Source: a virus
IMG/VR virus record: IMGVR_UViG_3300026290_000001
DNA length: 64,000 nucleotides
Reading direction: 5' to 3' (one strand)
The notes below the pieces were generated by a model. That model was not told the DNA's origin. It did no database searches and saw only the letters and a program-made list of their open reading frames with translations. Position numbers and translations under genes: made by a program. This document shows positions 225 through 63,670 of this stretch, piece by piece; the first letter of the stretch is position 1; every line of letters starts with the position of its first letter.

Positions 225-896
225 TTGATTAAAGTAGAAAATATAGAAGTGTTCAATTTTCAAGGGGCTTTAAGGGGCATGCGGAATCCTTTAGAATCTT
301 GGGATAAATCAGATAGTTATTGGAATGACACTACTATTGAAAGTGTCAAAGATTTCATCATTGGTGAAAAAGATATGACACTTGCTTTAAAACTTATTAA
401 AGCAGGAAATGAACATGCAAAATTCATGCGTCAAATTTTTGTCTCAATGGATATTACTGCGCCTTTATATTGGTGGAAGGAAGCAGACACATATAAAATT
501 TCTACAGTAGCAAACAGTACATCCACTATGCACAAAATGGGCAGCAGACCATTAATTTATGAAGATTTTTCTTGGGATAAATTCTTTGAAACAAATTTAG
601 GTAATATTACTGATGAATATATCTACAACTCAATTGAAAAATACCGACAGGATACTTTATCTCACTTAAACGAATTGATAGAAATATGGCAGGAACGAAG
701 AGATAAGAAAATATGGCTGGCAATAATTCAAAACTTACCTTCTTCGTTTAATCAAATGAGAACTTGGACTGGTAATTATCAAGTATTAAGAAATATGTAT
801 TTTCAGAGACGTAATCACAAGTTAAAGGAGTGGAAAGATTTTTGTAAGGTGATTGAGGAGTTACCTTATAGTGAATTGATTATAGTGGAAAAATAA
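225..896 (+). CDS. ThyX-like protein (FAD-dependent thymidylate synthase fold suspected); canonical RHR motif not seen
   Basis: 223 aa, ThyX-typical size; C-terminal pattern LP..(12)..N.R.L...QRR resembles ThyX family; aligned region reads WWKEADTYKISTVANSTSTMH instead of RHR..S...S.RY; sits next to dNMP kinase and nucleotidase. Confidence 0.35.
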   Translation: MIKVENIEVFNFQGALRGMRNPLESWDKSDSYWNDTTIESVKDFIIGEKDMTLALKLIKAGNEHAKFMRQIFVSMDITAPLYWWKEADTYKISTVANSTSTMHKMGSRPLIYEDFSWDKFFETNLGNITDEYIYNSIEKYRQDTLSHLNELIEIWQERRDKKIWLAIIQNLPSSFNQMRTWTGNYQVLRNMYFQRRNHKLKEWKDFCKVIEELPYSELIIVEK

Positions 897-913
897 AAAG
901 AAAGGAAGAATAT

Positions 914-1444
914 ATGAAAATAATAAATATATCGGGCAAGGCGCAACACGGGAAGGACACAACGGCATTAATTTTAAAAAAGAAATTAGAATCAAAAAAT
1001 AAAAAAGTTATAATAACTCACTATGCAGACCTACTCAAATATGAAGCAAAACAATTTTTTAATTGGGACGGAAATAAAGATGAAAAAGGTAGACAAATAC
1101 TTCAGTATATGGGTACTGATGTAATAAGAAAAATAAATCCTGATTATTGGGTTAATTTCATTAAAGAATTTATGTCAATGTTTGAAAATGAATGGGATTA
1201 TGTAATAATTCCTGATTGCAGGTTCCCCAATGAGATTGAAGTGTGGGGCATTGATAATTGGCCTAATGTATCGGTTAGAATTATTAGAGATAATTTTATT
1301 AGTAATCTCACTCCTGAACAATTAAATCATCCATCTGAAACTGCTTTAGATGATTATGAATTTGATTATTACATATTTAATTCTGATGATATAAATTATT
1401 TAAATAAAGAAGTAGATTATTTAGTTGAATGGCTGGAGGTATAA
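914..1444 (+). CDS. deoxynucleoside monophosphate kinase (P-loop)
   Basis: N-terminal Walker A-like ISGKAQHGKDT, size 176 aa, typical of phage dNMP kinases; RBS aaaggaag upstream. Confidence 0.6.
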   Translation: MKIINISGKAQHGKDTTALILKKKLESKNKKVIITHYADLLKYEAKQFFNWDGNKDEKGRQILQYMGTDVIRKINPDYWVNFIKEFMSMFENEWDYVIIPDCRFPNEIEVWGIDNWPNVSVRIIRDNFISNLTPEQLNHPSETALDDYEFDYYIFNSDDINYLNKEVDYLVEWLEV

Positions 1445-2002
1445 ATGAAAAGAAAGTTTTTTATTGATTTTGATAATACAATTATAGATACAACCAACGC
1501 TTTCTGCGCAGTTTATAATGAGCTTTATTGCGATCATCCTAATTTTAAAACAGCAGAACCAGATCAAGTTAAGGTTTACAATTTTTCTGACGAATGTCCT
1601 TTAGTTACAAATGTAGAAGAAATTTTTACTCATCCATTATTCTTTCAATTTGCAGAATTTATAAATCACAATACATATGAAACTCTAGAAAAATTAAACA
1701 ATAAATATCAACTTATAGTATGTTCAATAGGTTGGCCTAAAAACTTAGCATACAAGGCACGTTGGTTGGAAGAAAAACTACCTTTTATTAAAGACTATGT
1801 TCTAATCAGTAATCCTACATGCAAAATGAATAAGAGCATTGTAAATATGGAAGGTGCAATATTTTTGGACGATATACCGTCAAACTTATATAGTTCAAAT
1901 GCTGAAAGAAAGATATTATTTGGTAAGAGATATATTTGGAATAAAGAATGGGATGGAGAATGGGTAAGAAGTTGGAGTGAAGTTGAAGGAAGGTTTTTGT
2001 AG
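1445..2002 (+). CDS. 5'(3')-deoxyribonucleotidase, HAD superfamily
   Basis: N-terminal HAD motif I FIDFDNTIID, overall similarity to NT5C-type deoxyribonucleotidases; translationally coupled to upstream kinase (stop/start overlap ..taaATG). Confidence 0.65.
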   Translation: MKRKFFIDFDNTIIDTTNAFCAVYNELYCDHPNFKTAEPDQVKVYNFSDECPLVTNVEEIFTHPLFFQFAEFINHNTYETLEKLNNKYQLIVCSIGWPKNLAYKARWLEEKLPFIKDYVLISNPTCKMNKSIVNMEGAIFLDDIPSNLYSSNAERKILFGKRYIWNKEWDGEWVRSWSEVEGRFL

Positions 2003-4435: not shown

Positions 4436-5017
4436 CTACTTTAAAACCATACTTATCACTGCACCAAATCCCATAGACATTGCAATTATAAATAAATTCT
4501 TTAAAATATCTGATAATTTTATTTTATTATCACCACTTACTTCATCAATCTTCTTGCTTAATTTCTCCACACTAACTTCTGTACTGTTCATTCTATTGCT
4601 TAGTACGTCTAATGAATTACTGATCTTCGCTTGATTTTCACTAATTTCAGCAATCAATTTATCTCTTTTAATTCCGTCTTCTCTCTGTAATTTTGTGAGC
4701 AATTGGAGTTCGGACAAAACACTTGTAATATCATATATTTTGTTTGTTTGGCTTTCCAAATCATCTATACGGTGATTTGCCACCTTTATTTTTTCATCAA
4801 CATTCTTAAATACTTCGGCACAAATTTTTGGTTGTTCACATTCTTGATTTATGACCAATTCACAACACCATCCAATCTTTGTATTCATTCCTCCTTTGCG
4901 GTATAATGGGTACAAGGTAATTAATTTGACCGCAAAATTAATTACCATAACGAATAAGGCAGGATACCTATTTTTATCCTGCCTTATTTTTATTTTATTA
5001 AATTTAAAAAATCTCAA
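4436..5017 (-). CDS. XhlA-like coiled-coil membrane protein (lysis associated)
   Basis: 193 aa; central coiled-coil-like region and C-terminal TM helix (LFIIAMSMGFGAVISMVL) as in hemolysin XhlA-type phage lysis proteins. Confidence 0.4.
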   Translation of the reverse strand: MRFFKFNKIKIRQDKNRYPALFVMVINFAVKLITLYPLYRKGGMNTKIGWCCELVINQECEQPKICAEVFKNVDEKIKVANHRIDDLESQTNKIYDITSVLSELQLLTKLQREDGIKRDKLIAEISENQAKISNSLDVLSNRMNSTEVSVEKLSKKIDEVSGDNKIKLSDILKNLFIIAMSMGFGAVISMVLK

Positions 5018-5034
5018 AAAATCATTTTTAAGAA

Positions 5035-5049
5035 TCCCAATATATAGGG
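5035..5049. repeat. 15-bp motif ATCCCAATATATAGG, copy 2; forms hairpin ATCCC-AATATATA-GGGAT
   Basis: Exact match to 2447-2461; lies just downstream of the recombinase gene 5113-6117. Confidence 0.4.
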
Positions 5050-5112
5050 ATTTCTAAACCCGAAAATTTGAACCAAATTAAAGATTTGTTATGATACAAA
5101 ATAAAAACATAA

Positions 5113-6117
5113 TTATTGATAGAAATATTGAGTATAACTTTGTTGCTTGTGTTCAAACGTTTGTTTTGCGTAAATGCCCGTAGTTTGAATATCATCATGA
5201 CCTAAAAGTTCTTGTAATACCGACATTGGACAACCGTTATTTAGCATCAAGGTTGCGAAAGTATGTCTGAGCATATGGGGATGAGTTCTCTTGTCAAGCC
5301 CTGCACGTTTACCTATTGCTGCTATTTCTCGTTGAATACCTCGATTGCTTAATCTTCTATATTCCTGCCGTTCTGTTACAAATAATGCTTCACAGTCATC
5401 CTTACGACTTTCAAGATATTTTTTAAGGTAAATTGCAGCTCTAGCAGAATAGAATACAATTCGCTCTTTGTTTCCTTTGCCTAATACCTTAATCGTCCGA
5501 TTTGATTGTCCTATATCATCTTTATTTAGTGCCGATATTTCAGATAATCGACAACCTGTTGAATACATAATTTCAGTTAATGCTTTTTCTCGCAAAGTGA
5601 AACAACTTTCACGGAATAGTTCCAATTCTTCAATTGTTAATGCCTTTGCCATTGCTTTTCCCACTTTATAAGGTTTAATTCTAATCATCGGATTTTCTTC
5701 AATAATCTGTTCCTCACAAAGCCATTCAAAGAAACTGCGAAGTACTGAGCGAATTGTCTCAACAGTACTTTTAGCATTTACTGTTGGGTCGCTTTCCCGA
5801 TCATCCAGATAGTTAATTATGTCCTGCTTGGTTATTTCATTTACTGGTTTTTCTTCGGTTCTATCGGTAAATATTTTAAGATGAAGTCGATAATTATCAA
5901 TAGTTATTGGACTTAATCCTTGCCGTTTTTTATCCTTCAAAAACAGTTTTATGTTTTTCCGCAAATTATAATATTCTGGATCGCTGTTTTGTTTTATAAC
6001 TCTGTATTCATCAAGAATGGAGGCTAATTGATTTTTAGCCTCCATCTTATTCATGCCTTTTTCTATGATTCCATCTACAATTTTAGCATATAGCTCATAA
6101 TTGAGATTAGGGTGCAT
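5113..6117 (-). CDS. tyrosine recombinase (XerC/XerD-like integrase family)
   Basis: C-terminal catalytic motifs ...GCRLSEISAL..., HPHMLRHTFATLML, LGHDDIQTTGIYA; N-terminal SAM-like core-binding domain. Confidence 0.8.
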   Translation of the reverse strand: MHPNLNYELYAKIVDGIIEKGMNKMEAKNQLASILDEYRVIKQNSDPEYYNLRKNIKLFLKDKKRQGLSPITIDNYRLHLKIFTDRTEEKPVNEITKQDIINYLDDRESDPTVNAKSTVETIRSVLRSFFEWLCEEQIIEENPMIRIKPYKVGKAMAKALTIEELELFRESCFTLREKALTEIMYSTGCRLSEISALNKDDIGQSNRTIKVLGKGNKERIVFYSARAAIYLKKYLESRKDDCEALFVTERQEYRRLSNRGIQREIAAIGKRAGLDKRTHPHMLRHTFATLMLNNGCPMSVLQELLGHDDIQTTGIYAKQTFEHKQQSYTQYFYQ

Positions 6118-7843: not shown

Positions 7844-8686
7844 TTACCTCACCACCTTTAGCTGAATTGGCAAACTAACTTCAGGTTTATCCATCGCATA
7901 TAATGTTATAGAATTATTAGCAGTTGTTACACGATAAATTTTACCCCACTCATTTACTCGTTCTTTATCTGTAGCAAATGTGCCACTCATTACTACGTCA
8001 ACTATAGGATTGTCATTTGACGATATTCCAGTTACCGTTTGCGTTTTCGTATATGGGGCTTCTGTACCTGTCCAAGTAGTATCAAGTGTTGTCGTAAGCG
8101 TAGCGTGATATACGTGTCCTAATTTACTTATTGTCGCACCATCTGCCAGATGGTTAGCAAACTTTTTCCCAACCCCACTAACCAAAGGTCTTTTATCGAC
8201 AATTATATTTACAGTTTTATCCGCATTTGTACTAATAGTACCAATTAATAGACTTCCATCTGTAATTGTTCCATCTATACTACTAGCAAAATTTCCATCA
8301 TTTTTAAGATATATAGTATAGGTTATACTGGCCGATACTGGATTAATAGTAAAAGTTGTATCAGATGTTTTAGTTATAGTATTTATTGTATTTCCACTAA
8401 ATGTTTCACCAGTACCACTAGCAATAACTATACTTAATGTATCTGTACCACTCGTATAAAATGCAGATTTTATTCTAAATGGACTATCCAATTCTAATGA
8501 ATTTAATAAAAATCTCGCATCTTTCCATGTTGCTCCTAAATCTCTAGGATCAGTACCACCTAAAGTAACATTTGCATCATCAGCAACATGGATAATATCT
8601 AAACCACTATATTTATTTCTAATTTCTGCTACTTGCTCATCTGTATGTATAGCAAATACTTTGCTATTTTTAATTACACAAATCAT
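7844..8686 (-). CDS. tail fibre protein (shares a module with 8706-10469)
   Basis: Segment TFTINPVSASITYTIYLKNDGNF...LLIGTISTNADKTVNIIVDKRPLVSGVG is paralogous to a region of the upstream gene. Confidence 0.5.
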   Translation of the reverse strand: MICVIKNSKVFAIHTDEQVAEIRNKYSGLDIIHVADDANVTLGGTDPRDLGATWKDARFLLNSLELDSPFRIKSAFYTSGTDTLSIVIASGTGETFSGNTINTITKTSDTTFTINPVSASITYTIYLKNDGNFASSIDGTITDGSLLIGTISTNADKTVNIIVDKRPLVSGVGKKFANHLADGATISKLGHVYHATLTTTLDTTWTGTEAPYTKTQTVTGISSNDNPIVDVVMSGTFATDKERVNEWGKIYRVTTANNSITLYAMDKPEVSLPIQLKVVR

Positions 8687-8705
8687 AAATTTATATCTCC
8701 CTCCT

Positions 8706-10469
8706 TTACACTATTATCCATGAACCTTTATTTCCCTCAGAATTAGGTTCAGGAGAGAAAATAGGACTGCCACTATAATTAGAACAACGTACATATCCAT
8801 TGTTATATGCAAATATATCAATTAAACCTGCATCACCAACATTAGAATTTGAAGCAAATAAAGAACCTTCTTCACAACAATCTATATTGTATTCCACATT
8901 GTTTTTTGCAATAATTCCCGAACTAAATCCTTTTCCACCATTATTAACTGTTAATCCTGATTTATTTCCACAAACACATATATTTTCTGCCATCATACCC
9001 CCACCAGTAGAATCATAAGCACCTTTTTCAGAATTACCATTTGCTATACAATTATTTATATAAATCCCTGCGAAATTGGAACATTCATAACCATTTTCAT
9101 TATTGGAAGATGCTGTATATGGTGCAGTAATACCTGCTCTGTTAGTTACAAAAAAACCAGATTTAAAACCAGATACTCCAACATTTGTACCACAAGTTAT
9201 GCTTGCGCCTGTTGTTGATAATATTCCATAATTAGTACTAGCATTAGAACCAATAATTGCAACATTATTTAATAATCCTAATTCAGAACGGTCAGCAACA
9301 ATACCATTACAATTTGTAAATTTTAACGTTGTAGTTAAAACAACAAAATCTCCACCCGTTAATGCAACAGCAGGGAATGGAGTACCTTGAAAAGTATTTT
9401 TAACCGTTACTACGTTTCCATTTATATTTATAATTTCATACATTCCACGTAAAACTTCATGATTACCTGTGCCTGTAGTATTTTTTATAATAGCATATTG
9501 TCCTACTTGCATACCTACTGCACTAGCAACTGTTATAGGTACAGACCAATTTCCAGCAGTATCAGAAACACTACCTACGTTTGAAACGGTTGTGGCAATA
9601 GGAGTAGCACCAATTATTCTTATATTAGAACCATTAACATGATTTATTTTAAGTTGAGAAGTATGTTCATACATTTCTGTTAATAAAGAAATAGTTACAG
9701 TAGTTGAACTAGTTATACTAGCAGTTTTTATACTATCTAAAGCATTTGGTATTGTAGTAAAATCACATCCAGTAGAGCCAACAGTTATAGTTTTATTGGC
9801 ATCTATAATAGTATCTGTTAAATGTTTAATAAATTCACTACCTACAGCACTAACTAAAGGTCTTTTATCAGTAATTGTATTTATAGATTTATCTGCATTG
9901 GTACTAATTGTTCCTATTAAAATACTTCCATTTGGAATACTACCATTTGTACTTTTATCAAAATTACCATCATTCTTTAAATAAATATTATAGGTCACGC
10001 TAGCACTTACTGGATTAATATTAAAAGTAGTATCAGATGTTTTTGTAATAGTGTTTAAAGTAGTACTATTAAAACTTTCACCTGAACCCGAAGTAATTAT
10101 TATTGATAAAGTATCTGTTACTGAATTATATTCAGCAGATTTTATCTGAAACGGATACCCATATACATCTTCTACATTACTTTTTAAACTATCATGATCA
10201 TATGCTGTAAATAATCTTCCTATTATCGTTCCATTACTCCATGTCTGTGCTGTCCCTTGAAATCCCCTAGTTACACCAACCAAACTACTACCACTTTTAT
10301 CTGTATATAAAATAGTTTCTGCATTATTACCAGTTCCTATAGTAGCAAGATTAGGTGCATTGGGAAAAACTGAAATATCAGTTACGGGGATGGTAGTTGC
10401 AATACTATTTATATCAGAAGAAAGTGTTGTAAGAGGGGAGTTAATTTTAGCATTATACATTGTTTCCAT
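8706..10469 (-). CDS. tailspike/tail fibre with parallel beta-helix-like C-terminal domain
   Basis: 587 aa; repetitive G/N/S/T-rich segments with spaced Cys/Asn/Gly typical of right-handed beta-helix depolymerases; shared N-terminal module with 7844-8686. Confidence 0.5.
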   Translation of the reverse strand: METMYNAKINSPLTTLSSDINSIATTIPVTDISVFPNAPNLATIGTGNNAETILYTDKSGSSLVGVTRGFQGTAQTWSNGTIIGRLFTAYDHDSLKSNVEDVYGYPFQIKSAEYNSVTDTLSIIITSGSGESFNSTTLNTITKTSDTTFNINPVSASVTYNIYLKNDGNFDKSTNGSIPNGSILIGTISTNADKSINTITDKRPLVSAVGSEFIKHLTDTIIDANKTITVGSTGCDFTTIPNALDSIKTASITSSTTVTISLLTEMYEHTSQLKINHVNGSNIRIIGATPIATTVSNVGSVSDTAGNWSVPITVASAVGMQVGQYAIIKNTTGTGNHEVLRGMYEIININGNVVTVKNTFQGTPFPAVALTGGDFVVLTTTLKFTNCNGIVADRSELGLLNNVAIIGSNASTNYGILSTTGASITCGTNVGVSGFKSGFFVTNRAGITAPYTASSNNENGYECSNFAGIYINNCIANGNSEKGAYDSTGGGMMAENICVCGNKSGLTVNNGGKGFSSGIIAKNNVEYNIDCCEEGSLFASNSNVGDAGLIDIFAYNNGYVRCSNYSGSPIFSPEPNSEGNKGSWIIV

Positions 10470-11687
10470 TTACTCTATCACCCCTTCATAATTAACCTTC
10501 CAAACATCATTAACTTTGCCATAGATGCCAATGATAGGTTTCCATTTTCCATTAATTTTTACATAAACATTATTAATATTTTTCCAATTACCATTTACTT
10601 TATAAATCAGCGCAGTATTGTAAACTGAAATATCATTAATATTTAATAATAAATTATCATTAGCATTGGTTTCTACAAATACATTTGTAGTTTCATGTAT
10701 ATTTATATTTAAACTATCATTAGAATTAATATCAACATTTTTGTGAATATAACTTTCATTAATAGACAATCTAATTGAATCAGTTATATTATTAGATGCA
10801 GTTAAATTATTTACATTATCCGTTGAAGAAATATTTAATGTATCACTAACATTTGGCAAGGCAGTAACATTTGCATTGTCAGCACAATAAATATTAATAG
10901 CATCATTTTTATTAAACTCATTAATAGTTAAATCTATGCCATTAATATCTAAATTTTCAGATGTGCTAATATCTACCAATATATTTTTGGTTTCATTTAC
11001 ACCTATATTTAAATTATCACCAGTATTTATATTAGTAATTAATTGACTTTCTTCGGTAATATCTAAATATAAATTGTTTTCAATATCCTTGGATAATACT
11101 AATAAAGAATCTTCTTGTAGATTGATATCTAAAGAATCTTCTAGGTTTAAAGAAATATATGATGATTCATCTATTGTTAAATTAATATCATCTTCTACTT
11201 CAATGTTTTTATCTAAATTATTAGTTTCACTTAATGATAAATCAAGATCGTCATAAGTTTTTATATTGTAAGCATCAGGAGAATCCCATATAGATAATTC
11301 TTGTATATTTATAGACAAAGAATCATTAACATTTATATTTACATTTAATGATTGCGAATCACTTACAGTTAAGTTAAGTGCATCTTGAAGTGTATTAGTT
11401 ACTTCTAAATCCGAAACATCATTTAGTGTAATTATAGGCGGGTCAGTACCTGAAGCATTTACAAGCCTTTCACTTTCCTCTACAGATGTAATAATTAAAT
11501 TGTCAGAAACACTAAAAGTCCAAATTTTATTACTTTCTTCAGTTATAGTTATTGTTAATTCATCATGTACATTTATTTCTATAACTGCTGATTCTGTAAT
11601 ATTTAGTGTTAATTCATCCGAAGAGGAAGATGATATATCGTTTAATGTGTTGAAAGATGTTTGGTTAAAACGTCCTTGATTAAACAA
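10470..11687 (-). CDS. tail fibre-like repetitive protein
   Basis: 405 aa, low-complexity Asn/Ile/Ser-rich repeats, C-terminal YKVNGNWK / INGKWK / VNDVWK repeats. Confidence 0.4.
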   Translation of the reverse strand: MFNQGRFNQTSFNTLNDISSSSSDELTLNITESAVIEINVHDELTITITEESNKIWTFSVSDNLIITSVEESERLVNASGTDPPIITLNDVSDLEVTNTLQDALNLTVSDSQSLNVNINVNDSLSINIQELSIWDSPDAYNIKTYDDLDLSLSETNNLDKNIEVEDDINLTIDESSYISLNLEDSLDINLQEDSLLVLSKDIENNLYLDITEESQLITNINTGDNLNIGVNETKNILVDISTSENLDINGIDLTINEFNKNDAINIYCADNANVTALPNVSDTLNISSTDNVNNLTASNNITDSIRLSINESYIHKNVDINSNDSLNINIHETTNVFVETNANDNLLLNINDISVYNTALIYKVNGNWKNINNVYVKINGKWKPIIGIYGKVNDVWKVNYEGVIE

Positions 11688-11747
11688 TAAATATCACCTC
11701 CTCATTAATTAAAAATAGGACTATATATAATTTTTATATTAATAATA

Positions 11748-12128
11748 TTAACTAATATTAATTGTAAGTGTTACGGTAAGAAGCCAGTTTCCACCGGATT
11801 TTGTGCCTAAATTTTCCACCTTCCTATTCAACATAACTCCTCCACTAGAAGCATTAAAAACTCCCCATTCCTGCCATGCAAAATTAGCATCAGTAGTTCC
11901 AAAACTAGATTTAAATACTAACTGATTATTAGTTCTTGTAGGGAAAGTGGCTTCCATGCCCTTTCTTACTTTGTTAGAACTTGCTTGTAAATCAATCTGT
12001 GAAGCTGCAAAAGCAGTAGTAGAATCACCGACTCCGATATGCGAATTTGTCGAATTAAAGAATACGGGTGAATCATCATTAATTATACAAGCTGCTATAA
12101 AATCTCTACCACTATTTGTTAATGCCAT
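11748..12128 (-). CDS. hypothetical structural protein
   Basis: 126-aa ORF in tail fibre region. Confidence 0.3.
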   Translation of the reverse strand: MALTNSGRDFIAACIINDDSPVFFNSTNSHIGVGDSTTAFAASQIDLQASSNKVRKGMEATFPTRTNNQLVFKSSFGTTDANFAWQEWGVFNASSGGVMLNRKVENLGTKSGGNWLLTVTLTINIS

Positions 12129-12435
12129 TTTTATAATTCCTCCTTAAATTTATATTTGTAAAATAATAAATAATTTAATAAATATTTAAATATTAAATAT
12201 TAAAACCCATATCTTTTAAATTATCTTCTGATGCCATAAAATCATCTTCAGATATAATAACTTCAATGGGTTTTACCAAACCTTTATCAATTTGTTCCTG
12301 TGTTGCCCAATCAGGATATTTTTCTAATCTGAGCGTTGCTTTCATGCTAATTCCCATTTTTTCATTATTCATAAAATCTAATAATTACCTCCTTATTTTT
12401 CTAGTATATTTATATTAATAAAATAATTAATATCT

Positions 12436-12942
12436 TTATTCTTGATAGACGAACCAAATGTCCCCATCCTCACCGTCTTCATTACTAGGTTGTACAGTAG
12501 AAAATATAAAATGGTGTGCAGAAGTTTGTATTATATCTTCAAGTGTTTCTTTAATATCATAAGAACCACTACCATTAGATTGAAAACTACTATAAATCCT
12601 ACTTGCGGGTATATAAACTCCACCACTACCATAAAAAGAAAATTGTAATATACTTCCACTTACATCAGGATGAAAATAAACGTATCCATATACATAATCT
12701 ACTTTATATGTACCAATTTTACTTTCTGTGTCTAATGTAGGAAAACCATCAACAATTTCATACCACTGGTAAGTTTCCAATCCAAAATTACCCATGACCT
12801 GAACTTTATTTTGCCTATGCGGAATTTCTGATAATATTACTAATCCATTTATTATTTTTTTATATTCACTTAATGAAACTAAAGGTTGCTCATTATTACC
12901 TCTTCGTATTGAAATAAAAGGATCATAAAAAATTTGATTCAA
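12436..12942 (-). CDS. hypothetical protein
   Basis: 168-aa ORF, same strand as structural operon. Confidence 0.3.
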   Translation of the reverse strand: MNQIFYDPFISIRRGNNEQPLVSLSEYKKIINGLVILSEIPHRQNKVQVMGNFGLETYQWYEIVDGFPTLDTESKIGTYKVDYVYGYVYFHPDVSGSILQFSFYGSGGVYIPASRIYSSFQSNGSGSYDIKETLEDIIQTSAHHFIFSTVQPSNEDGEDGDIWFVYQE

Positions 12943-54186: not shown

Positions 54187-55014
54187 CTATTGATTAGATA
54201 GTAATTTTTCTTTATGTTCCCTTACACGTTTAATTGCTAAATTAAAATATTGATCATGTGGTTCACTCAGACTCCATTCAAAACCTATGTAATTTCTTTC
54301 AGTATTTAAACAAGCTATCGCTGTTGTGCCTGAACCTATGCAATTATCTAAGACTAAATCTCCTTCATTTGTATATGTTTTAATTAGATATTCAAATAAT
54401 TTTACTGGTTTTTGAGTGGGGTGTGGTAATTTTTCTTTAGAATTTGAATTAACTATAGGATTATATATTACAGTTGATGGATTTTTTAATTTTGCATTGT
54501 ACACATCATAACTTCTTCCAGCATAATCTGTATTAAAAACAATTTCATTATCTTTTCTTTTTGAGATAGAACTTCTAAAATTAATATTATTATTTTCTTG
54601 CATTTGTTTCATTCTTTCGCTTTTACGTTCTATCATTTGTCTATTATATGTATATTTATTTTTTGCAAATATTAATATATTTTCATGATATTTTAAATGT
54701 CTATATTTTGCATTTGCAAAATTACTCGCTCTATCTTTTTCCCATATTAGTTCTTCTTTAAACCAATCAATATTACTACAAATTAATTTGCTTGTAAATG
54801 GTTGACTTGCTGTTAATACTATAGCACCATTATCTTTTATAATTCTTTTATACTGTTCCCAAAGTTTATCAAAAGAAATTAAACTATCCCATTTTGCTAT
54901 TGTAGTTCCATAAGGTAGATCACATAAAATCATATCTATACTTTTATCAGGTAATAAACACATACCATTTTCACCAATACAATCTTCGTTATAAATAGTA
55001 TTTAATTTAATCAA
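54187..55014 (-). CDS. DNA methyltransferase (N6-adenine/N4-cytosine amino-MTase)
   Basis: Motif IV-like ILCDLPYGTT near N-terminus and SAM-binding LVLDNCIGSGTTAIA near C-terminus. Confidence 0.75.
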   Translation of the reverse strand: MIKLNTIYNEDCIGENGMCLLPDKSIDMILCDLPYGTTIAKWDSLISFDKLWEQYKRIIKDNGAIVLTASQPFTSKLICSNIDWFKEELIWEKDRASNFANAKYRHLKYHENILIFAKNKYTYNRQMIERKSERMKQMQENNNINFRSSISKRKDNEIVFNTDYAGRSYDVYNAKLKNPSTVIYNPIVNSNSKEKLPHPTQKPVKLFEYLIKTYTNEGDLVLDNCIGSGTTAIACLNTERNYIGFEWSLSEPHDQYFNLAIKRVREHKEKLLSNQ

Positions 55015-55454: not shown

Positions 55455-56204
55455 TTAAAATTCCACTAATCTATTTTTCGCTATTTCACAATATTTTTCT
55501 TCTAATTCAATTCCAATACATTTACGTTTAAGATTTCGTGCCGCCAATAAAGTTGTTCCTGAACCACAGGTAAAATCTAAAATAAGATCGTTTTCATTTG
55601 TGTATGTATTAATTAAATATTCCATTAATTCTAATGGTTTTTGTGTAGGATGAAATAAATTATTATTTGGATTTGCAAAATTTAATATATTTTTAGGATA
55701 ACCTTTAGCATTACTATTTCCAAAATGCTTTTCTTTCCCAAAAGTATATTCTCCATCCACTTTATTTTCTCTACTTGGTCTATTATTATTAAATTCTCCA
55801 TAAATTAACCCTTGCGGATTATAAATGCATTGATTTTTATAAAAAACTAAAACATCTTCTATTGCTCTCATTGGTTGTTTTTTAGCATTTAAATGACCAC
55901 TTGGTTTAGTTTTTATCCATTTCCAATCATATTTATATTCTTTAATATTACTAATTCTTAAAAAACTACTAAAAGGTTCTCCTCCAAACAATAATGTAGG
56001 TGTTGTATTTTTTGTTAATTTATGTAATCTATCCCACATGTCATTAAATTTGATAATTTCATCCCATTTACATTTAGTAGTACCGTATGGTGGGTCAGTA
56101 ATTATTGCATCAAATTTAATACCTTTCTCAATAATCTTATCCATTACCTCTAAACAATCACCTTGAAATAATCTTATGTATTCGTCTTTATAGTATAATT
56201 TCAA
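55455..56204 (-). CDS. DNA methyltransferase (amino-MTase), paralog of 56249-57034
   Basis: IITDPPYGTT motif and LDFTCGSGTTLLAA SAM-binding motif; N- and C-termini near-identical to neighbour, central region differs. Confidence 0.8.
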   Translation of the reverse strand: MKLYYKDEYIRLFQGDCLEVMDKIIEKGIKFDAIITDPPYGTTKCKWDEIIKFNDMWDRLHKLTKNTTPTLLFGGEPFSSFLRISNIKEYKYDWKWIKTKPSGHLNAKKQPMRAIEDVLVFYKNQCIYNPQGLIYGEFNNNRPSRENKVDGEYTFGKEKHFGNSNAKGYPKNILNFANPNNNLFHPTQKPLELMEYLINTYTNENDLILDFTCGSGTTLLAARNLKRKCIGIELEEKYCEIAKNRLVEF

Positions 56205-56248: not shown

Positions 56249-57034
56249 TTAAAATTCCACTAATCTATTTTTCGCTATTTCACAATATTTTTCTTCTAAT
56301 TCAATTCCAATACATTTACGTTTAAGATTTCTTGCCGCTAACAATGTTGTCCCTGAACCACAGGTAAAATCTAAAATAAGTTCGTTTTCTTTTGTGTATG
56401 TATTAATAAGGTATTCTAATAGTTCAATTGGTTTTTGAGTCGGATGTAATTTTTTCCCTGACATACTAGCGTTGCTTAAAGTATAAATACTTGTTGGATG
56501 TCTATCTTTATATTCTTTATGCCCCAAGTCTTTTATGGTATGTCCTTCTCTTAATGTGCTATTTCTTGAACCATAAAATGTTTTATTAACTTTTTTTATA
56601 TCATCTCGTTTTGTTTTTTGAGGATAATAATTCATTTCATTACCTTTTGAGAAAACTGCTTTTGCTTTACTAAAAATTAAAATATTTTCATGTACTCTAC
56701 CTACTTGAAAATTCATCATTTGAAAATTAGATGGTTTTACTTTATCCCAAATAATTTCATATCTAAATAGTTGAGGATTACTCATAATTAAAGCACTCGT
56801 AAAAGGTTGAGAACCATTCAATACTATTGCACCTTTATCTTTGATTAATTGAGTAATTTTATCCCACATCTTATCAAAAGGAATTATCGTGTCCCATTTA
56901 CATGCTGTAGTACCATAAGGTGGATCAGTTATTATCGCATCAAATTCAATACCTTTCTCAATCAATTTATCCATCACTTCTAAACAGTCACCTTGAAACA
57001 ATCTTATGTATTCATCTTTATAGTATAATTTCAT
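56249..57034 (-). CDS. DNA methyltransferase (amino-MTase), paralog of 55455-56204
   Basis: IITDPPYGTT and LDFTCGSGTTLLAA motifs; upstream/downstream non-coding sequence also duplicated. Confidence 0.8.
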   Translation of the reverse strand: MKLYYKDEYIRLFQGDCLEVMDKLIEKGIEFDAIITDPPYGTTACKWDTIIPFDKMWDKITQLIKDKGAIVLNGSQPFTSALIMSNPQLFRYEIIWDKVKPSNFQMMNFQVGRVHENILIFSKAKAVFSKGNEMNYYPQKTKRDDIKKVNKTFYGSRNSTLREGHTIKDLGHKEYKDRHPTSIYTLSNASMSGKKLHPTQKPIELLEYLINTYTKENELILDFTCGSGTTLLAARNLKRKCIGIELEEKYCEIAKNRLVEF

Positions 57035-59713: not shown

Positions 59714-60592
59714 TTAAATAGCACAATTATTCATACTTTTTCTTATATCATCTTGTGAAGGATGTAAATATATTTGAGTAGTAGAAAGCGAACCATGACC
59801 AAGTATCTGCTGAAGAGCCTTGAGATTCCCACCATTTTCTAAAAAATTAGTAGCAAATACATGTCTTAATGAATGACAAGTTATTACATTACTATGTTTG
59901 TTAAATATTCTTTCAACACTACTACTTTCTAATTTTTCACTTTTGTTGCTTAAAAATAAATATTTACTTCCTAATACATTATAAGCATACTTATAATTCT
60001 TTCTATCATCAATCGCTTTTTTAATAATCTCAATAGCAGTTTCATTCAATGGTATTATTCTTTGCTTACTTCCCTTACCAATAACTTTAAGATTCTTTCT
60101 TTTAAAATTAATATCATCCAACTCAATATTTAATGCTTCAGATATTCTTAAGCCAGTATTCAGAAGTAAAGCAACTATATAATAATTCCTATCACATTCA
60201 TTCTTCCTTATTCTTTCCATAAATTTTATTGCTTCAGATTTAGTAATACTAGTTGGAGATGTTAATTGTTTTTGTATGCGTATATAATCCTGTCCCAATA
60301 TCACCAAACTATCCTGATACCCCATCTTAACCAAAAATTCATTATAACTTTTCAAAGCACTTAACCTTCTATTTATTGTCTTAGCATCAACATTTCTTTC
60401 TTTAAGTAAATATTCCTTATACTCCGCAATCTGATCTCTACTAATAATCTGGGGTTCAATTCCAAAATACTCAAAAAACAAACCAATATCATGAGAATAA
60501 GATTTTATTGTATTGATAGATTTACCTTGTTCTACTAGGTGGTTGATGTATTCGGTTAAATAATTTTCATTTGCAACGAGATTCATATTCAT
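59714..60592 (-). CDS. tyrosine recombinase (XerD-like)
   Basis: Motifs NTGLRISEALNI, HSLRHVFATNFLENGG, LGHGSLSTTQIYLH. Confidence 0.8.
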   Translation of the reverse strand: MNMNLVANENYLTEYINHLVEQGKSINTIKSYSHDIGLFFEYFGIEPQIISRDQIAEYKEYLLKERNVDAKTINRRLSALKSYNEFLVKMGYQDSLVILGQDYIRIQKQLTSPTSITKSEAIKFMERIRKNECDRNYYIVALLLNTGLRISEALNIELDDINFKRKNLKVIGKGSKQRIIPLNETAIEIIKKAIDDRKNYKYAYNVLGSKYLFLSNKSEKLESSSVERIFNKHSNVITCHSLRHVFATNFLENGGNLKALQQILGHGSLSTTQIYLHPSQDDIRKSMNNCAI

Positions 60593-63199: not shown

Positions 63200-63670
63200 A
63201 TGGCAAAGCAAATAACGAGTGAATTAGAGGGTAAATGGTATAAAATTCCAGATTATAAAATAATGTTAGTGCGAGATAGCAATATAACAGCCGACAAAAA
63301 AAGAATATCTCATCCTAATGATGTTGTCAATGTATTCCAAACATATTTAGAAGGTTTAGACAGAGAACATTTTTGCATTGCTATGCTAGATAGAAAAAAT
63401 AATATTTTAGGTATTAATACGGTATCAATAGGTAGTATAAGTGCAAGTATAGTTCACCCGCGCGAAGTTTTTAAACCAGCTATTATAATTGGTGCATCAA
63501 GTATTATCCTTTGTCATAATCACCCAAGTGGTGATACAATGCCAAGCAATGAAGATATAACAATAACAAGAAAATTAGTAGAAGGCGGAAAACTACTAAA
63601 TATTGAAATACTTGATCATGTTATTATTGGCGATAATTATTACAGTATGAAGGAAAAAGGAATTATTTAA
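63200..63670 (+). CDS. RadC-like JAB/MPN domain protein
   Basis: JAMM motif region ...ILCHNHPSGDTMPSNEDI... and upstream conserved E (HPREVFK), size 156 aa typical of RadC-like. Confidence 0.75.
   Translation: MAKQITSELEGKWYKIPDYKIMLVRDSNITADKKRISHPNDVVNVFQTYLEGLDREHFCIAMLDRKNNILGINTVSIGSISASIVHPREVFKPAIIIGASSIILCHNHPSGDTMPSNEDITITRKLVEGGKLLNIEILDHVIIGDNYYSMKEKGII

Follow-up and report, generated by a model that had tools for sequence, protein, structure and literature searches.

Reviews recognise only two enzyme families for the de novo synthesis of thymidine monophosphate (dTMP), ThyA and ThyX. Here we describe a family of proteins represented by open reading frame 1 (ORF1; positions 225-896, + strand) of a 64,000-nucleotide stretch of viral DNA from IMG/VR record IMGVR_UViG_3300026290_000001, the whole of which we refer to as the window. 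We think it reasonably likely that ORF1 represents an uncharacterised branch of the ThyX (Thy1) superfamily and serves as a thymidylate synthase, converting deoxyuridine monophosphate (dUMP) to dTMP, in the supply of thymidine triphosphate (dTTP) to a phage; the catalysis itself is what we infer. ORF1 has the fold of ThyX (also known as FDTS; PF02511; T. maritima TM0449, H. pylori 3ah5, M. tuberculosis 2af6), but the two are only 12-20% identical in sequence, and the RHR motif of ThyX has become T-Y-K. The ORF1 family is, moreover, linked to dihydrofolate reductase (DHFR), a linkage not expected for ThyX. ThyA (PF00303) is unrelated to ORF1 in fold and sequence and has a catalytic cysteine, whereas an alignment of 85 members of the ORF1 family contains no invariant cysteine. 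What the ORF1 family does share with ThyA is an operon slot, directly upstream of folA, and the pathway neighbours of the two are alike in phages.

Two further systems are close enough to merit comparison. PolB (PDB 4p5a) is a flavin-dependent paralogue of ThyX that methylates UMP/dUMP in polyoxin biosynthesis; it keeps the flavin chemistry and the motifs of ThyX and is known from antibiotic clusters of Streptomyces rather than from housekeeping or phage replication settings. The SPO1-type pathway to 5-hydroxymethyl-dUMP combines a hydroxymethylase, a deoxynucleoside monophosphate (dNMP) kinase, a nucleotidase directed at dTMP/dUMP and a dUTPase, and its logic is the same as that of the gene set around ORF1. 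Phage thymidine-replacement pathways use ThyA-family hydroxymethylases. Unlike the SPO1-type pathway, the pyrimidine enzyme in question here has a predicted ThyX fold, and it has chromosomal orthologues in the thyA position.

Fold and active site of the ORF1 family

An earlier note, made from the sequence alone, had called ORF1 ThyX-like but without a recognisable RHR/Ser motif, and both halves of that description are borne out. The sole family match of ORF1 (223 aa) is phrog_6721 (E 3.4e-68), which is annotated 'unknown function', and searches of Pfam, NCBIfam and the PDB with the single sequence and with two profiles gave no significant match. An AlphaFold (AF2) model was built from a 49-sequence alignment (mean pLDDT 86.6, pTM 0.83), and a Foldseek search of the PDB with this model returned only ThyX structures among the top 50 (E down to 6e-7, TM 0.61-0.63). 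In a comparison with BFVD, the nearest viral models are named 'Uncharacterized protein' and the next are canonical viral ThyX. On this model, ORF1 is a ThyX-fold protein. Of the two approaches that the earlier note had proposed for positions 225-896, structural modelling thus pointed to ThyX and nothing else in the PDB, whereas a Thy1/ThyX profile search did not, since ORF1 has no match to Pfam Thy1 (PF02511) at E<=1. Among 85 diverse relatives, 18 match Thy1 at E<=0.1, no other Pfam family matches more than two members, and one relative (P0136) exceeds the Thy1 gathering score (29.3 bits against 24.8). Alignment with hhalign of the family profile to T. maritima ThyX, for which the query sequence was checked to be identical to PDB 1kq4, was not significant (E 0.21 and 0.08); the alignment at E 0.08 spans 145 columns in the register implied by the fold. 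The tie to Thy1 at the level of sequence is faint but specific.

In ThyX, the RHR motif and the Ser71/Arg190 pair (M. tuberculosis numbering) hold the phosphates and ribityl of flavin adenine dinucleotide (FAD), and R78 touches the isoalloxazine and dUMP as well (PMC6514825). S88, R90 and Y91 are conserved and critical for catalysis (PMC6514825; PMC11940539), the SxRY segment contributing contacts to the dUMP phosphate and flavin O4 and a lid tyrosine (PMC11940539; PMC6514825). We tabulated the predicted equivalents of these residues over the 85 relatives using the hhalign/fold register, which in the loop S98-H103 is provisional. The RHR motif is replaced throughout, with T89 in place of R78 (89% of members), Y90 in place of H79 (100%) and K91 in place of R80 (85%). 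The S88-G-R90-Y91 segment likewise gives way to (C/T)-S-T-M: the S88 position holds C in 42% and T in 38% (T99 in ORF1) and is followed by S100, R90 becomes T101 (82%) and Y91 becomes M102 (98%). R147 is I in 81% of members, and R165 is E in 67%, A in 15% and Q in 12%. Among the ThyX residues that are kept are D41 (96%), G52 (97%), H53 (87%), N163 (80%) and N169 (67%), together with R174 (as R195, 100%), H178 (as H198, 100%) and E182 (as E202, 97%). R195 aligns with R174 of the T. maritima and H. pylori enzymes (R199 in M. tuberculosis), the uracil-binding arginine of the dUMP site, whose contact with the dUMP uracil is described in PMC6514825 and PMC12004180.

The family has also acquired conserved residues of its own. 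K66, R69, S98, S100, M102, H103 and E202 are each conserved in 96-98% of members, residues 97-103 form a family-specific motif, N-S-x-S-T-M-H, and newly near-invariant residues stand at positions that face FAD in ThyX (K66, R69, Y90 and K91, the equivalents of T55, E58, H79 and R80). So many invariant polar residues point to an active protein with a re-tooled active site, and for this reason we rejected a decayed pseudo-enzyme. We also rejected, by inference, an enzyme directed at dCMP, because the arginine responsible for reading uracil O4/N3 never varies. The earlier note had suggested that ORF1 carries out an altered reaction, which may be right in the sense of an altered cofactor chemistry.

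Bacterial relatives and the thyA position

The ORF1 family is large. A hidden Markov model scan of 1.84 billion cluster representatives retrieved 4,835 proteins at E<=1e-3, each representing a 50%-identity cluster, and 3,397 at E<=1e-10; a word-indexed search gave at least 8,000 matches, with no precomputed Pfam domain among the 120 matches listed. The gene is present in more than 600 species-level bacterial genomes, and the best 80 genome loci come almost entirely from Clostridia (Lachnospiraceae, Oscillospiraceae, Ruminococcus, Anaerocolumna), together with Erysipelotrichaceae. Every identified host is an anaerobe. Members are found too in cultured phages, where all are annotated 'hypothetical' (Clostridium phage phiCTP1, Enterocloster phages, the C. 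difficile phiCD211 group, C. perfringens XP41-N3, Fusobacterium Fnu1 and the T7-like Desulfovibrio phage ProddE). The public name is generally 'hypothetical protein', with one UniRef entry reading 'Thymidylate synthase complementing protein', and a full-text literature search found no description of the family, although reports may exist in journals outside that search.

About 55 of the best 80 genome loci carry a subfamily with the motif RGARNP[ML]NSW, situated among housekeeping genes. In three Anaerocolumna genomes (L103, L105 and L136; 9472-16136) the order is GNAT, ThyX-like gene, RNase HI, MutS, MutL, MiaA, and the ThyX-like gene overlaps that for RNase HI by 4 nt (ATGA), indicating translational coupling to a DNA-repair operon. 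Such clear chromosomal synteny led us to reject the idea that this is a prophage-only gene. Other chromosomal settings are ValRS/EngB/Lon/Tig (in Amedibacillus), TatD-SDR followed by the ThyX-like gene, and the ThyX-like gene followed by NadE. Seven uncultured Clostridia have the gene next to the S10 ribosomal operon; these copies are the closest non-phage relatives of ORF1 (52-54% identical), and they are followed by a P-loop gene resembling nucleoside monophosphate kinases in 7/7 cases and then by a FolC-type Mur ligase in 6/7.

The most informative of these settings is found in three Lachnospiraceae, in which a DHFR gene (Pfam 8.8e-46) lies directly downstream of the ThyX-like gene, the two genes overlapping by 4 nt at one extreme and separated by 11 nt at the other, an order that matches the classical thyA-folA arrangement. 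We therefore examined 80 metagenomic loci encoding DHFRs 50-64% identical to those of the three Lachnospiraceae. Directly upstream of folA, 67 of the 80 carry thyA (63 on the same strand, with gaps of 14-190 nt) and six carry the ThyX-like gene (gaps of 6-19 nt). No locus has both, and none has canonical thyX in this position; three have no gene upstream of folA and four could not be assessed. Counted at this slot, thyA and the ThyX-like gene are thus mutually exclusive. The pairing of the ThyX-like gene with folA is kept while the flanks vary, and some of the genes downstream are common to thyA-folA loci. Upstream of folA, thyA has been displaced in situ by a non-orthologous gene, the ThyX-like one.

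The FAD-holding residues of ThyX, including every ligand of the FAD phosphates, have been lost, and bacterial copies show translational coupling to DHFR; for these reasons the ORF1 family may be a thymidylate synthase without a bound flavin. In such an enzyme, dUMP would be activated by polarisation through R195, the equivalent of R174 and acting as it does in ThyX, and methylene and hydride would both come from methylenetetrahydrofolate (CH2-H4folate), as in ThyA, with release of dihydrofolate. We tentatively propose, as one possibility, that gut and rumen Clostridia and their phages thus harbour a third mechanistic class of thymidylate synthase, in which a ThyX fold with neither bound flavin nor catalytic cysteine polarises dUMP, uses CH2-H4folate as both donor and reductant and depends on DHFR. 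It is somewhat less probable, in our estimation, that these proteins are still flavin-dependent thymidylate synthases in which FAD, FMN or a free reduced flavin serving as co-substrate is held by a newly evolved set of residues (K66, R69, Y90 and K91) that stands in for RHR and R165, and tetrahydrofolate is released. The fold and pocket elements are those of ThyX, near-invariant basic and aromatic residues stand exactly at the FAD-contact positions, H53, which in ThyX stacks on folate and flavin, is largely retained, and all known ThyX-fold enzymes, PolB included, use flavin. Retention of flavin is harder to reconcile with the concerted loss of five FAD/dUMP-site arginines and the SxRY segment, and the tight and repeatedly kept coupling to DHFR in the thyA slot is what would be expected of a producer of dihydrofolate. 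A 2003 study by Myllykallio and colleagues is said to have found that organisms with thyX often lack folA, which would also count against a flavin-dependent enzyme here.

Gene context in phages

ORF1 is the first of three genes on the + strand of the window that converge with a lysis cassette on the - strand (holin, Amidase_2-SLH endolysin and membrane proteins). The window has a G+C content of ~28%, and its remaining genes are nearly all on the - strand. ORF1, a putative thymidylate synthase lacking the RHR and SxRY motifs, starts at a TTG codon with a ribosome-binding site, as read from the sequence, 6 nt ahead of it (AAAGGAAAGG, 210-219, + strand). ORF2 (914-1444, + strand; 176 aa) encodes a T4-gp1-type dNMP kinase (Pfam DNMK 8.3e-14, 52.2 bits against a cut-off of 27.1; phrog_139 1.6e-36; PDB 1dek 2.6e-6) with the P-loop GKAQHGKDT at residues 8-16. 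ORF3 (1445-2002, + strand; 185 aa), whose ATG directly follows the ORF2 stop codon, encodes an NT5C-family 5'(3')-deoxyribonucleotidase (Pfam NT5C 5.1e-10, 40.0 bits against a cut-off of 24.8, covering residues 6-181; PDB 3bwv 3e-3) with HAD motif I (DxDxT) intact as DFDNT at residues 8-12. Upstream of ORF1 is the 3' part of a small ORF (1-210, + strand; 87 aa in the source contig L004, at 9723-9986), for which a Pfam search gave no match.

An exact-sequence match places ORF1 on a 138-kb metagenomic contig (L004), on which the three genes are preceded on the same strand by genes for a RecD2-like helicase, NrdD, the NrdG activase and dUTPase and by four small ORFs, the last of which is the one that is truncated in the window. 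The earlier note had assigned ORF1 to a deoxynucleotide-metabolism cluster, and this contig not only upholds the assignment but indicates that the three genes are the tail end of the deoxynucleotide-supply module of a large phage. Most likely, this is a phage of ~138 kb with a low-GC anaerobe as host and a self-contained set of dTTP-supply genes on one strand. In such a module NrdD/NrdG would provide deoxynucleoside triphosphates including dUTP, dUTPase would convert dUTP to dUMP, the ThyX-like product of ORF1 would convert dUMP to dTMP and the gp1-type kinase would convert dTMP to dTDP, while the NT5C nucleotidase would probably trim dNMP pools. The simplest reading of the cluster is that it provides for ordinary dTMP synthesis, albeit with an unusual enzyme.

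ORFs called in all loci of the family were grouped into clusters, whose representatives were then annotated with Pfam. Within 10 kb of the family gene in 85 phage loci, and nearly always co-oriented with it, we find NrdD (27 loci), dUTPase (24-25), NrdG (23), DUF3310 (14-15), guanylate-kinase-like proteins (13-15), MazG (8), nucleoside 2-deoxyribosyltransferase-like proteins (Nuc_deoxyrib_tr; 8), dCMP deaminase (6) and DUF1599 (5); replication genes are also common. Canonical ThyX is absent from all 169 loci of the family and from the window, a ThyA-family gene lies near the ORF1 family gene in a single locus of the 169 (L041), and tblastn of the 64-kb window found no ThyA-family gene. In the complete genome of Enterocloster phage PMBT24 (100 kb), genes for NrdD/G, dUTPase and a dNMP kinase accompany one for an ORF1 family protein, and tblastn of this genome found neither ThyA nor ThyX.

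The earlier note read ORF1, the kinase and the nucleotidase as a base-replacement pathway. On that account ORF1 would catalyse a C5 change of a pyrimidine nucleotide (for example hydroxymethylation of dUMP or dCMP) and its two neighbours would channel the modified nucleotide and deplete the canonical one. We consider this improbable, although it is favoured by the ThyX fold of ORF1, whose active site is altered, and by the adjacent dNMP kinase and pyrimidine-type 5'-nucleotidase genes. A kinase of the window type lies near the family gene in only 5/169 loci, and so does an NT5C nucleotidase of the window type; all three genes occur together only in L004/L005, which are one phage, and in L090, which is 64% identical. 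We therefore rejected a conserved operon, and regard the arrangement as lineage-specific, kept in nearest relatives only. No hypermodification enzymes adjoin ORF1 in the window, and the domains encoded by its L004 neighbours include no 5-hydroxymethyl-dU DNA kinase, pyrophosphorylase, glycosyltransferase or aminotransferase, the glycosyl-, amino- and phospho-transfer functions typical of hypermodification. The three methyltransferases that the note had reported elsewhere in the phage, and which could favour a modification role, are indeed encoded, by nearly tandem genes on the - strand (54187-55014, 55455-56204 and 56249-57034; Pfam N6_N4_Mtase 9e-34, 5e-33 and 2e-37), but these are N6/N4 DNA methylases of an ordinary kind, lie 52 kb away and are presumably anti-restriction enzymes. 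The same invariant residues are found in a single-copy chromosomal gene of many Clostridia that lies by folA, folC, mutS/mutL or ribosomal genes, that replaces thyA in the thyA-folA operon, and whose FolC-linked copies are the closest non-phage relatives of ORF1. These chromosomal data argue against hypermodification as the general role of the family.

More favourable to a modification role in phages are the small helical domains DUF3310 and DUF1599 ('nucleotide modification associated domain 1'), which are fused to the ThyX-like protein or encoded immediately downstream of it in ~20/85 phage loci and are found beside none of the chromosomal copies. P0136 has a C-terminal DUF3310 and P0228 a C-terminal DUF1599, and adjacent ORFs occur, for example, at 11360-11710 in L045 and 10737-11066 in L025. 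These domains may be a phage-specific accessory subunit of the ThyX-like protein. Similarly, in L041 (IMG/VR UViG_3300045988_142712) the ThyX-like gene stands together with genes for a ThyA-family protein and a carbamoyltransferase. The order of genes there (7936-12793) is thymidylate-kinase-like, ThyA-family (possibly split), dUTPase, ThyX-like, a 572-aa carbamoyltransferase and dCMP deaminase, and we regard this row as a candidate pyrimidine hypermodification cluster.

We note several other features of these loci. Seven family members (P0164, P0178, P0207, P0248, P0262, P0264 and P0268) contain an in-frame NUMOD4-HNH_3-HTH homing-endonuclease module in a variable loop at about residue 120-140, which suggests that the gene is targeted by mobile elements, as are phage td/thyA/thyX genes; insertion of homing HNH endonucleases is typical of phage thymidylate synthase genes. 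On L004, genes for a DUF488-N3a ('active DUF488-N3 subclade') protein (4855-5190) and a SprT-like protein lie among small early genes between those for the helicase and NrdD. The window also contains two tyrosine recombinase (Phage_integrase) genes on the - strand (5113-6117 and 59714-60592), one of them right after the lysis cassette, and a RadC-like JAB gene on the + strand (63200-63670). Contig ERZ27268616 k141_863810 extends only ~30 kb downstream of ORF1, against the 64 kb of the window; probably either this contig assembles the entire phage genome in circularly permuted form or the window derives from a different one of the nine contigs with ORF1. At the nucleotide level this DNA shows essentially no similarity to known phages.

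Weight of the evidence and implications

Some of our observations weigh against a thymidylate synthase. Residues critical in ThyX are replaced, so that the known chemistry of ThyX cannot simply be assumed; nor is there, in the aligned sequences, a conserved cysteine for chemistry of the ThyA type. Linkage to DHFR is not proof that the reaction yields dihydrofolate, and the folA-linked copies resemble one another closely (~80% identity), so that thyA may have been displaced in only one evolutionary event or a few. In L041 a ThyA-family gene accompanies an ORF1 family gene, and the linkage to DUF3310/DUF1599 would be compatible with a modification role in phages. Least probable of all, and we think very doubtful, is a non-catalytic derivative of ThyX (a regulator that binds nucleotides or folate, or a subunit able to poison or re-program the tetrameric ThyX of the host). 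In its favour, essentially all residues needed for ThyX catalysis are lost, and mixed tetramers could in principle inhibit an enzyme in which three subunits contribute to each active site. Against it, many polar residues are invariant and together make up a new motif (NS-x-S-T-M-H, Y90, R195, H198 and E202), and an inhibitor would not explain the widely kept copies in DHFR operons in the thyA position of bacterial chromosomes.

On balance, the members of the ORF1 family are probably thymidylate synthases of a previously undescribed kind rather than enzymes of DNA hypermodification. If so, the family would be a third solution for dTMP synthesis, a ThyX fold without the ThyX cofactor site, and should it prove to work without flavin, it would make up a new mechanistic class. 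The family offers a natural experiment on the rewiring of the ThyX reaction. Confirmation would give a name to phrog_6721, a very common 'unknown' gene in phage annotation pipelines, and would have a bearing on the response of gut bacteria to antifolates and fluoropyrimidines. The family extends to thousands of protein clusters in gut and rumen Clostridia and the phages of strict anaerobes, and many of these genomes would now seem to be without a thymidylate synthase or to carry a 'hypothetical protein' instead; the reconstruction of their thymidylate and folate metabolism would, if our reading is confirmed, have to change.

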